Assembly: GCA_965197525.1 (NCBI GenBank)
Contig: OZ240211.1
Coordinates: forward strand, 672,001-736,000
Direction: 5' to 3'
Source: Nitrosopumilus sp.
Lineage (GTDB): Archaea > Thermoproteota > Nitrososphaeria > Nitrososphaerales > Nitrosopumilaceae
Length of the DNA: 64,000 nucleotides
Below, piece after piece: positions 29,161 through 29,261 of this stretch (positions are counted from its first letter, which is position 1; the number at the start of each line of letters is the position of its first letter). The position numbers were made by a program, and so were the translations under genes. The notes below the pieces were generated by a model. That model did not search any database, was not told the origin of the DNA, and saw only the letters and a list, made by a program, of their open reading frames with translations.

Positions 29161-29261
29161 TGGTGAGTGTGGGATTTGAACCCACGATGTGCTCGTCACA
29201 CAATCGCCTTTCTGAGGCAATCGCTTCAGGGCGACACCTTACCATTCTAGATAAACTCACC
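29161..29261 (-). tRNA. Atypical tRNA: GAA anticodon, 14-nt intron at 37/38, long variable arm, A73
   Basis: GGTGAGT/ACTCACC acceptor; D-arm ATCT..AGGT; TCGCC-CTGAAG|intron|A-GGCGA; V-stem GTGTG/CACAT; GTGGG-TTCAAAT-CCCAC; TTAATATA box about 25 nt upstream. Confidence 0.8.

Follow-up and report, generated by a model that had tools for sequence, protein, structure and literature searches.

A transposon-borne class II tRNA with a phenylalanine anticodon, next to a putative restriction-modification control region, in Nitrosopumilus

We describe an unusual tRNA gene in the genome of Nitrosopumilus sp. (G000; a single contig of 2.21 Mb, 39.6% GC), which its surroundings place inside a transposon of the IS6 type (IS, insertion sequence). 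The gene lies in a stretch of 64,000 nucleotides (nt), G000:C1:672001-736000 (the window), and positions below are those of the window unless the genome or a contig is named. It is a 101-nt pre-tRNA gene on the minus strand (29161..29261; position 1 at 29261, discriminator A73 at 29161), delimited by Rfam, ARAGORN and a helix-by-helix parse, and it joins the long variable arm of a class II tRNA to the anticodon GAA. On one side an IS6-family transposase gene follows on the same strand; on the other a gene for a protein of 56 amino acids (aa) diverges from it, ahead of a broken gene for a DNA methylase-HNH nuclease fusion. Homologues were sought by BLAST in 200 other genomes of the family Nitrosopumilaceae (G041, G014, G080 and G063 among them), and L-numbers (L076, L077, L080/81, L084 and others) denote fetched loci from relatives.

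An intron-bearing tRNA gene under selection

Rfam model RF00005 scored the gene at 41.1 bits against a gathering score of 29 (E 2.8e-5 in the window), and ARAGORN with introns allowed returned tRNA(gaa) with a 14-nt intron; one ARAGORN run on the window reported no tRNA, missing both intron-bearing genes, including an ordinary tRNA-Ser. The parse gives an acceptor stem GGTGAGT/ACTCACC, a D arm ATCT/AGGT with a 9-nt loop, an anticodon stem UCGCC/GGCGA, a T arm GTGGG/CCCAC and a variable arm of 18 nt with a 5-base-pair (bp) stem, hence a class II body. The anticodon loop reads C32 U33 G34 A35 A36 G37, then the intron, then A38; the discriminator is A73, and CCA is not encoded. Nucleotides universal to tRNA tertiary structure are all present and invariant in seven aligned members of the family (U8, A14, G18G19, A21, U33, G53 T54 T55 C56, A58 and C61), the G15:C48 pair is likewise invariant, and the 7-nt anticodon loop is kept. 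The first-pass annotation, made from the letters of this stretch, had described a cloverleaf with U33, GAA and G37, a 5-bp variable stem, A73 and a TATA box of the gene's own; every one of these features was found (the TATA box as a TATA-like sequence), on the minus strand with the 5' end at 29261, which corrects the earlier placement.

The anticodon G34 A35 A36, for UUC/UUU, lies at 29225..29227 (minus), and the 14-nt intron CGAUUGCCUCAGAA at 29210..29223 (minus), the canonical 37/38 position, as assigned by folding and by enumeration of excisions. Its UCAG pairs with C32-A35, as the annotation had proposed, and the resulting 4-bp helix, followed by a 3-nt AAA bulge adjoining the anticodon stem, is the minimum-free-energy fold of the isolated arm. 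Compared with a bulge-helix-bulge motif at 37/38, the 4-bp helix and the 3' AAA bulge are exact; the 5' splice bulge is relaxed, with a distal helix no longer than 1-2 bp, which makes the motif bulge-helix-loop-like. Eight 14-nt excisions are possible, and only the one at 37/38 yields U33-GAA-G37 together with bulge-helix geometry. Alternative anticodons AGA and GGA would require cuts within the helix, and the weaker fold with TGA and C33 that the annotation had offered is discarded as the product of a one-nt shift in stem register, in which U33 is lost. The predicted site is supported by intron-less relatives: L076 reads CTGAAGA and then GGCGATTG, the exact predicted spliced product, and L077 also lacks the intron, with the loop CTGAAAA.

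Judged against the host's own tRNAs, the gene stands apart, being only ~50% identical to any host class II tRNA and having 50% GC where most core tRNAs for Ser, Leu and Phe have 61-63%. The normal tRNA-Phe that the annotation wished to see confirmed elsewhere in the genome is at 230215-230291 of G000, with a short variable loop and G20, and all hosts have a canonical tRNA-Phe. An ordinary host tRNA-Ser(GGA) lies in the window itself (4319-4420, minus) and served as the host Ser reference; it has an 18-nt intron, 63% GC, G73 and an encoded CCA, and of the two genes the odd tRNA has the more regular bulge-helix motif.

Full-length homologues of the tRNA were found in only 4 of the 200 genomes, intact in G041 and G014 and decayed in G080 and G063; by genus the tRNA occurs in 1 of 17 genomes (the window's own), 2 of 3 and 2 of 5. 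A search with the small open reading frame (ORF) next to the tRNA added more distant members at the L-numbered loci. Intact relatives occur in four further Nitrosopumilaceae genomes or contigs, and we count five intact lineages of the family. Pattern scans for the tRNA in metagenome and viral collections gave chance-level matches or none.

Across the three intact intron-bearing copies, which come from three genera, 90 of 90 cells are paired, against 29-52% in slid registers; two pairs have changed on both sides and two via wobble; a shuffle control (54/500) has little power with three sequences. All 30 base pairs are thus conserved, and GAA is identical in G041, G014, L077 and L076, which upholds the earlier view that G34 is no sequencing error. 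Every helix pairs in the more distant L077 and L080 too, with different anticodon stems (TCGCC/GGCGA in G000, TCCGA/TCGGA, TCGGC/GCCGA) and different variable stems (TGTGT/GCACA, ATGTC/GACAT, TGTCC/GGACA); the stems change around a constant loop, CUGAA(G/A)A, and L077 retains GAA. From G000 to G041, whose host has 64% GC, there are 10 changes, all AT to GC, and no pair is broken. The two tRNAs are 90% identical, compared with 67-72% for the neighbouring methylase DNA and intergenic DNA that is not alignable. Since the canonical tRNA-Phe genes of the relatives' genomes are 86-90% identical to that of G000, conservation of the odd tRNA matches that of a housekeeping tRNA. The G041 locus has lost its transposase by deletion and its methylase is frameshifted (DPPF -> GPPF), yet the tRNA there is whole. 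At the ~30% divergence of its neighbours, the 101 nt should have gathered about 30 changes; 10-13 are seen, none of them pair-breaking and several compensatory.

Going by these substitution patterns, this is a genuine tRNA gene under selection, neither pseudogene nor artefact; helices maintained through compensatory changes and intact copies in other genomes refute the pseudo-tRNA reading. The annotation had looked to random anticodon drift among homologues as the mark of such a pseudo-tRNA. Within the GAA lineage no drift is seen, GAA being older than the split of at least four lineages and kept while the stems change; constancy does not extend to two sister lineages (L080/81 and L084), which carry CAG with G73 in its place.

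Several fragments and variants accompany these genes. Sequencing run X7 gave a 96-nt contig, at 2x depth, on window positions 29145-29255 that lacks exactly the 14 nt of the intron; its reconstructed loop is CUGAUGA (anticodon GAU, Ile), which may be a variant or a thin-contig error. The same anticodon appears in the decayed G063 copy on contig C66. In G014, half copies of the tRNA are scattered at C1 1372438-1372514, 1370286-1370337 and 1575390-1575446.

The IS6-type unit and its putative control region

The transposase gene (27969..29120, minus) encodes 383 aa with an N-terminal SWIM zinc finger and matches PF13610 (DDE_Tnp_IS240; 53 bits) and PF04434; six more homologous copies, full-length or nearly so, are present in G000, together with fragments. 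Its ATG (29120) is 40 nt from the tRNA 3' end on the same strand, the spacing that the annotation had given. A terminal inverted repeat of IS6 type, GGTTCTGTTAACTTGACG..., found by repeat search, overlaps the transposase 3' end (27962..28021, plus), and an inner inverted copy at 31037..31093 (minus), exact in its last 18 nt and 77% identical over 57 nt, completes a unit of 3,132 bp. A second, outer inverted copy of the left end (31092..31151, minus; 93% over 60 nt) is probably the stub of another IS copy. The terminal repeats enclose the transposase, the tRNA, the 56-aa ORF and the methylase-HNH gene, and the unit has the GG-initiated terminal inverted repeats and DDE_Tnp_IS240 transposase by which the IS6 family is recognised. 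Neither right end of the window unit shows an 8-bp target-site duplication.

A homologous unit at L077 is better preserved. It measures 4,588 bp, has perfect 31-bp inverted repeats and an 8-bp target duplication, TACAACAA, and carries a GAA tRNA, the same control region, a small ORF and a different (type IIG) restriction-modification (R-M) gene; its transposase protein is 45% identical to that of the window. Because this homologous unit has perfect repeats and a target duplication, and because repeats enclose the tRNA in the window, the tRNA is, on the evidence of these boundaries, cargo within an IS6-type transposon. The annotation had called the tRNA transposon-borne and had pointed to homologues near IS6 transposases as a place to check, and L077 provides one. 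That the tRNA lies just outside the IS, as the resemblance between transposase copies, which reaches no more than 27 nt upstream of the ATG, might suggest, is overturned by the same enclosing repeats and the L077 unit. An attachment site or integrase target was also considered and rejected: only T-arm matches occur as partial duplicates in the genome, and no integrase was seen nearby.

The transposase has a promoter block of its own, TATATTAATTTTTGAGGTGTC... (29121..29147, minus), with a TATA box 27 nt before the ATG (leaderless-type). The block is common to copies A, C, D, E and F, begins 13 nt past the tRNA 3' end, and also follows the tRNA in G041, G014, G063 and G080. A role of the tRNA as a processed leader controlling the transposase, which the annotation had suggested, is unlikely because the transposase has this conserved TATA box and because the tRNA outlives the transposase, persisting without it in G041 and G014. 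Both of those tRNAs adjoin homologous branched-chain amino-acid (liv) ABC transporter genes, ~50% identical in aa sequence; the liv arrangements differ (L055 5504-7409 and 10174-12905; L056 10059-14751), and the resemblance could be shared ancestry or coincidence. In G014 an IS66 transposase directly adjoins the tRNA.

Upstream of the tRNA lies a region with the features of a promoter and operator. A TATA-like box, TTAATATAAT, read from the sequence as a putative promoter, occupies -33..-24 from the tRNA 5' end (29285..29294, minus), and even hosts with 60-64% GC keep an AT-rich box in this position. Repeat search identified an operator-like palindrome, TAATCCTTAAGGATTA, with core CCTTAAGG (29272..29287), 15-22 nt upstream of the tRNA 5' end. 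Its core falls between the TATA-like box, which the palindrome abuts, and the tRNA start and keeps this position in six loci; a different palindrome, ACGTACGT, is at the identical position in G041, making seven loci in all. G041 also has the most diverged homologue of the small protein, whose putative palindrome target is TATACGTACGTATA, and on a contig from another sequencing run the G041-type palindrome again adjoins the tRNA. A second operator-like palindrome (29304..29315; core CCTTAAGG at 29306-29313) stands 40 nt before the small-ORF ATG, and every locus but G041 and L076 keeps it at ~40 nt from the ATG, even where the tRNA has been lost; L076 has a single palindrome, 41 nt before the small-ORF ATG.

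The small ORF (29354..29524, plus) encodes the 56-aa protein, a candidate operator-binding regulator, divergently from the tRNA. In every fetched context its nine homologues immediately precede methylase or R-M genes of differing types, and a class II tRNA is divergent from the ORF in G000, L077, L080/81, L084, L076 and G080. A Pfam search of the small protein gave no match even at E 10. The AF2 model has a beta-beta-alpha-beta-beta topology (pLDDT 77), for which the best Foldseek TM scores were to MazE, AbrB-N, SpoVT and VapB (0.5-0.62), with no E-value below 1. From the model and its position, the protein may be AbrB/MazE-like and probably binds the operator, gating the tRNA promoter. Since the same palindrome goes with different R-M types, it would belong to the regulator and not be an R-M recognition site. 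By its gene order across these loci, the tRNA is one half of a conserved module with the palindromes and the small regulator gene, followed by varied R-M cargo. At L082/L083 an IS6-type end, GGTTCTGTCGAGTTATCG (~3345-3362), lies ~140 nt upstream of a small ORF lacking a tRNA partner, and an IS end may there have taken the place of the module's tRNA side. When the tRNA was compared with neighbouring mRNAs for complementary stretches, only weak repeats at chance level appeared.

The R-M cargo of the window, an N6/N4 DNA methylase-HNH nuclease fusion (29639..31043, plus; PF01555, PF01844), is split into ORFs 29639-30640 and 30615-31043. At 30586-30691 a 36-bp methylase stretch is duplicated around a 34-bp insert, breaking the gene, and the G041 homologue is one fused ORF there. 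Two more methylase-HNH copies, with 77-79% aa identity to the G041 copy, lie at G000:C1 917459-918634 and 920418-921782 (minus), both between IS6-type end repeats upstream of transposase copy C; flanked in this way, the methylase-HNH gene appears to be repeated IS6 cargo in G000. The genome further holds at least 17 copies of a ~1.27-kb element bounded by GGTTCTGTGAAGTTATCG inverted repeats, which resemble IS6 ends (for example G000:C1 164081-165368, 254252-255539 and 296603-297889), and single ends of the GGTTCTGTGAAGTTATCG type lie in the window at ~5226 (plus) and 15720 (minus).

Small RNA genes occupy comparable positions in other units. At four other IS6-type transposase genes, copies C (start 922604), D, E (2003476, minus) and F (1959097), the tRNA slot holds a sequence resembling a C/D-box small RNA, with boxes C ATGATGA, D' CTGA, C' (G/A)TGATG and D CTGA; each stops ~20-28 nt before the same transposase TATA block, and the one at copy D (G000:C1 ~746829-746917, plus) has a 9-bp terminal stem, GTGATTGGC/GCCAATCAC. 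G000 also has six more class II tRNA-like genes with GC contents of 43-52%, clean cloverleaves, G73 and no Ser anticodon, at G000:C1 370064-370148 (minus), 615040-615126 (plus), 828334-828421 (plus), 1904518-1904602 (plus), 1960237-1960323 (minus) and 2002247-2002334 (plus). Their anticodons are TAA (three), CAG, TCT and 'ATC', and the D arm of the TCT gene is of Ser type. Two of the genes, at 1960237 and 2002247, are separated by 5 nt from the stop codons of convergent IS6-type transposases, and the former lies within its unit's inverted repeats; the 7-mer GGTTCTG, at 3 per 10 kb, occurs too often to assign the other odd tRNAs to IS units. In G080, a long-arm tRNA that ARAGORN calls 'Ile-TAT' (C2 381257-381305, locus L054) precedes an IS6-like transposase fragment by 40 nt, as the tRNA of the window precedes its transposase. 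A small structured-RNA gene seems to be a regular part of IS6 units in G000.

Amino acid identity and function of the tRNA

Phenylalanine identity depends on G34, A35, A36 and A73, which are universally conserved, plus G20 in A. pernix; archaeal leucine identity on A73 and specific arm bases (those of the arm loop being defined in H. volcanii); and serine identity on G73 as the main determinant, G30:C40 and the arm, with SerRS and LeuRS independent of the anticodon (PMC9976931). By these rules the tRNA has a dual identity, its body and its anticodon pointing to different amino acids. GAA and A73 of this copy fit a tRNA-Phe, and the 18-nt arm and U20 do not fit its class I body and G20. Its long-arm geometry and short D-loop fit a tRNA-Ser, and it lacks G73, G30:C40 and a Ser anticodon (NGA/GCU); A73 with a long arm fits a tRNA-Leu, in this copy only, and it lacks the extended D-loop (20a/20b), the 3-bp arm with its several unpaired 3' bases and a Leu anticodon.

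Comparison with host tRNAs sharpens the assignment of the body. D-loops are 7-9 nt in host Ser tRNAs, 11 nt in host Leu tRNAs and 9-10 nt in the odd family (9 in this copy); arm stems are 4-5, 3 and 5-6 bp, respectively (5 in this copy); and there are 1, 4 and 1-2 unpaired 3' arm bases (2 in this copy). The discriminator is G73 in host Ser and A73 in host Leu tRNAs; all relatives of the odd tRNA, and its variants in four sequencing runs, have G73, so that A73 is specific to the G000 copy. G30:C40 is present in L077 and L080, and C30:G40 in the G000 clade. In sequence and geometry the family body looks Ser-like, not Leu-like, with non-Ser anticodons. The annotation had spoken of a Leu/Ser-type body; the class II body with GAA stands, and the Leu part of the claim gives way to the Ser-like D-loop and arm. 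This copy, combining GAA and A73, could from its determinants equally be taken by PheRS or LeuRS, and the CAG sister lineage with G73 misfits the A73 of leucine. The amino acid carried could be Ser, Leu or Phe.

Building on the structure, selection, splice site, mobility and module architecture described above, we infer how the tRNA would be transcribed, repressed, charged and used by the ribosome. Transcription would start from its own TATA box, and binding of the palindromic operator beside that box by the small, putatively AbrB/MazE-like protein would probably make expression conditional. The 14-nt intron would be excised at the canonical 37/38 bulge-helix site, as the intron-less relatives suggest, CCA would be added to the spliced product, and the mature 87-nt class II tRNA would decode UUC/UUU. 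Charging would be independent of the anticodon; Phe codons would receive Ser from the relatives and either Leu or Ser from the A73 copy. Because the body is Ser-like, the family discriminator is G73 and SerRS and LeuRS ignore the anticodon, we read the family as long-arm mis-sense tRNAs, and we favour, at a probability of about 40%, a regulated, conditionally expressed mis-sense tRNA reading UUY.

Several points weigh against this account. Proteome-wide substitution of Ser for Phe should be very costly. This copy has all four universal Phe determinants, so PheRS might charge it correctly and harmlessly; it has C30:G40 in place of the determinant G30:C40 of all host Ser tRNAs; and its arm exceeds those of host Ser tRNAs by 3-4 nt and has an additional unpaired 5' base. 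The discriminator is A or G among copies, which is unusual under selection for one synthetase, and the regulator is assigned from a weak fold match and from where its gene lies. Next to the intact G014 copy there is neither a small regulator gene nor a palindrome, and the unrepressed presence of the tRNA seems tolerated. A recoding signal, in the form of Phe codons in R-M genes at positions of Ser or Leu in relatives, was not seen, in proteins that are just 16-24% identical, for which the comparison is uninformative either way.

An unlikely but serious alternative is a benign one, that the gene is a spare tRNA-Phe. PheRS would read GAA, and here A73, despite the long arm, and would deliver Phe at UUY; the gene would then act as a mobile reserve, whose different body might, for instance, keep it in service when the host tRNA-Phe is attacked or scarce. 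Mobile elements commonly carry tRNAs, and a harmless tRNA would account for host tolerance, including that of G014 without a nearby regulator. GAA is conserved across lineages with changed stems, as if the anticodon were needed for charging, and to the four universal Phe determinants of this copy may be added that yeast PheRS mischarges tRNA-Tyr given GAA (PMC9976931). The relatives, all G73 and not A73, fit this explanation poorly, as does U20, where the one tested archaeon and the host tRNA-Phe have G20; retention of the class II body, the CAG sister with G73 (which LeuRS should reject) and the operator over the promoter are left unexplained.

Somewhat less likely still, the product may be a tRNA-shaped RNA with a job other than decoding: a decoy or sensor for anticodon nucleases or tRNA-targeting toxins, or a cis element such as a promoter, terminator, insulator or processing signal. 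The constant link to defence-type (R-M) cargo and a regulator agrees with such a role, as do the C/D-box-like small RNAs in the same slot upstream of the transposase promoter in other G000 units, the low-GC class II tRNA-like genes with odd anticodons inside IS6 units, and the variation of anticodon (GAA or CAG) and discriminator between lineages. Invariant tertiary positions and a 7-nt anticodon loop exceed what a processing signal needs; a cis role is further opposed by the transposase's own promoter and by the survival of the tRNA without the transposase. Least probable of all is a decaying passenger, a former element-borne tRNA-Leu (with GAG or CAG, for instance) whose anticodon mutated and which, now silent or useless, looks intact through being small: the window unit is indeed decaying (its methylase-HNH gene split by a 70-bp duplication and insert, its target duplication missing), copies have decayed in G080, G063 (two copies) and L076, and A73 is derived and copy-specific in a gene of low GC, but the shortfall of changes, their compensatory nature, the age of GAA and the intact promoter and operator all contradict it.

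The regulated mis-sense tRNA can be extended to a repressor-gated mistranslation device, a proposal that we consider doubtful. The tRNA would be silent while the operator is occupied, an effector travelling with R-M cargo on IS6 transposons; on a lapse of repression, a Ser-type tRNA would flood the cell, placing Ser or Leu at Phe codons, or acting at CUG in the sister elements, and protein synthesis would be poisoned or slowed. Entry into a new cell, stress, virus attack or loss of the regulator might act as triggers, and the device might serve abortive infection, addiction or establishment, with the tRNA as an archaeal toxin under antitoxin-like transcriptional control.

Known systems and significance

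Natural tRNAs in which body and anticodon disagree are rare, and are well documented in bacterial actinomycetes and codon-reassigning yeasts. The tRNA-ProA/ProN/ProT genes of Streptomyces and Kitasatospora ('tRNA-ProX') resemble the present gene in being natural, conserved tRNAs with a mismatch of anticodon and body, a patchy distribution, and an expression that is expected to be toxic and therefore controlled; they differ in being bacterial, class I and Pro-bodied, usually beside a dedicated ProRS isoform, with mischarging shown (PMC10404621). Ours is archaeal, class II and Ser-like, has an intron, belongs to a cassette of IS6 transposase and R-M genes in a unit without a synthetase gene, and its mischarging is a prediction. 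Closer in body is the tRNA-Ser(CAG) of CTG-clade yeasts (Candida), with a Ser-type long arm and a foreign anticodon that SerRS ignores (PMC2246281). L080 and L084 share its anticodon CAG with G37. The yeast tRNA is chromosomal and reassigns a codon genome-wide, in contrast to an accessory, mobile tRNA whose hosts keep their normal tRNAs. As with the tRNAs of phages and mobile elements, an extra gene on a selfish element lies outside the host core set and is unlike host tRNAs in GC and sequence. Those tRNAs normally have a matching body and anticodon, unlike the one described here.

In its DDE_Tnp_IS240 transposase, GGTTCTG... terminal inverted repeats and 8-bp target duplication (in L077), the transposon resembles the IS6/IS26 family. 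It departs from that family in having a single transposase and 2-3.4 kb of passengers (tRNA, regulator and R-M genes) within one pair of repeats, and not between two flanking ISs, and in the extra SWIM/zinc-ribbon domains at the transposase N-terminus. To our knowledge no IS-family transposon has been reported to carry a tRNA.

The control region is reminiscent of R-M controller (C-protein) circuits, in which the gene for a small DNA-binding protein lies directly upstream of the R-M genes with two palindromic operators (PMC3115060, PMC6237814). The same layout is found here, with the small gene upstream of R-M genes in its nine homologues and palindromes, as putative operators, at fixed positions. 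Classical C proteins are helix-turn-helix proteins, whereas the small protein here is modelled, weakly, as AbrB/MazE-like and beta-rich. One of the putative operators here lies on the promoter of a divergent tRNA gene, which is no known feature of C circuits. Our literature search found no report of an archaeal mismatched tRNA, a tRNA inside an IS-family transposon, or a tRNA tied to an R-M control region.

What makes this tRNA noteworthy is that it is selected and not a relic, that it is mobile by transposon, and that its putative promoter lies beside an operator-like site shared with an R-M control gene. If the tRNA is mischarged, it would amount to a mobile, switchable rewriting of Phe (or Leu) codons and would connect defence islands with the translation apparatus in a new way. 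If instead PheRS charges it, a class II body can serve phenylalanine, which would bear on how synthetases discriminate among tRNAs. Thaumarchaeal IS-like elements have been described as units of 1-2 genes (PMC6563490); the units described here suggest that thaumarchaeal IS6 elements go beyond such insertion sequences and are carriers of cargo, namely tRNAs, small RNAs and R-M genes.

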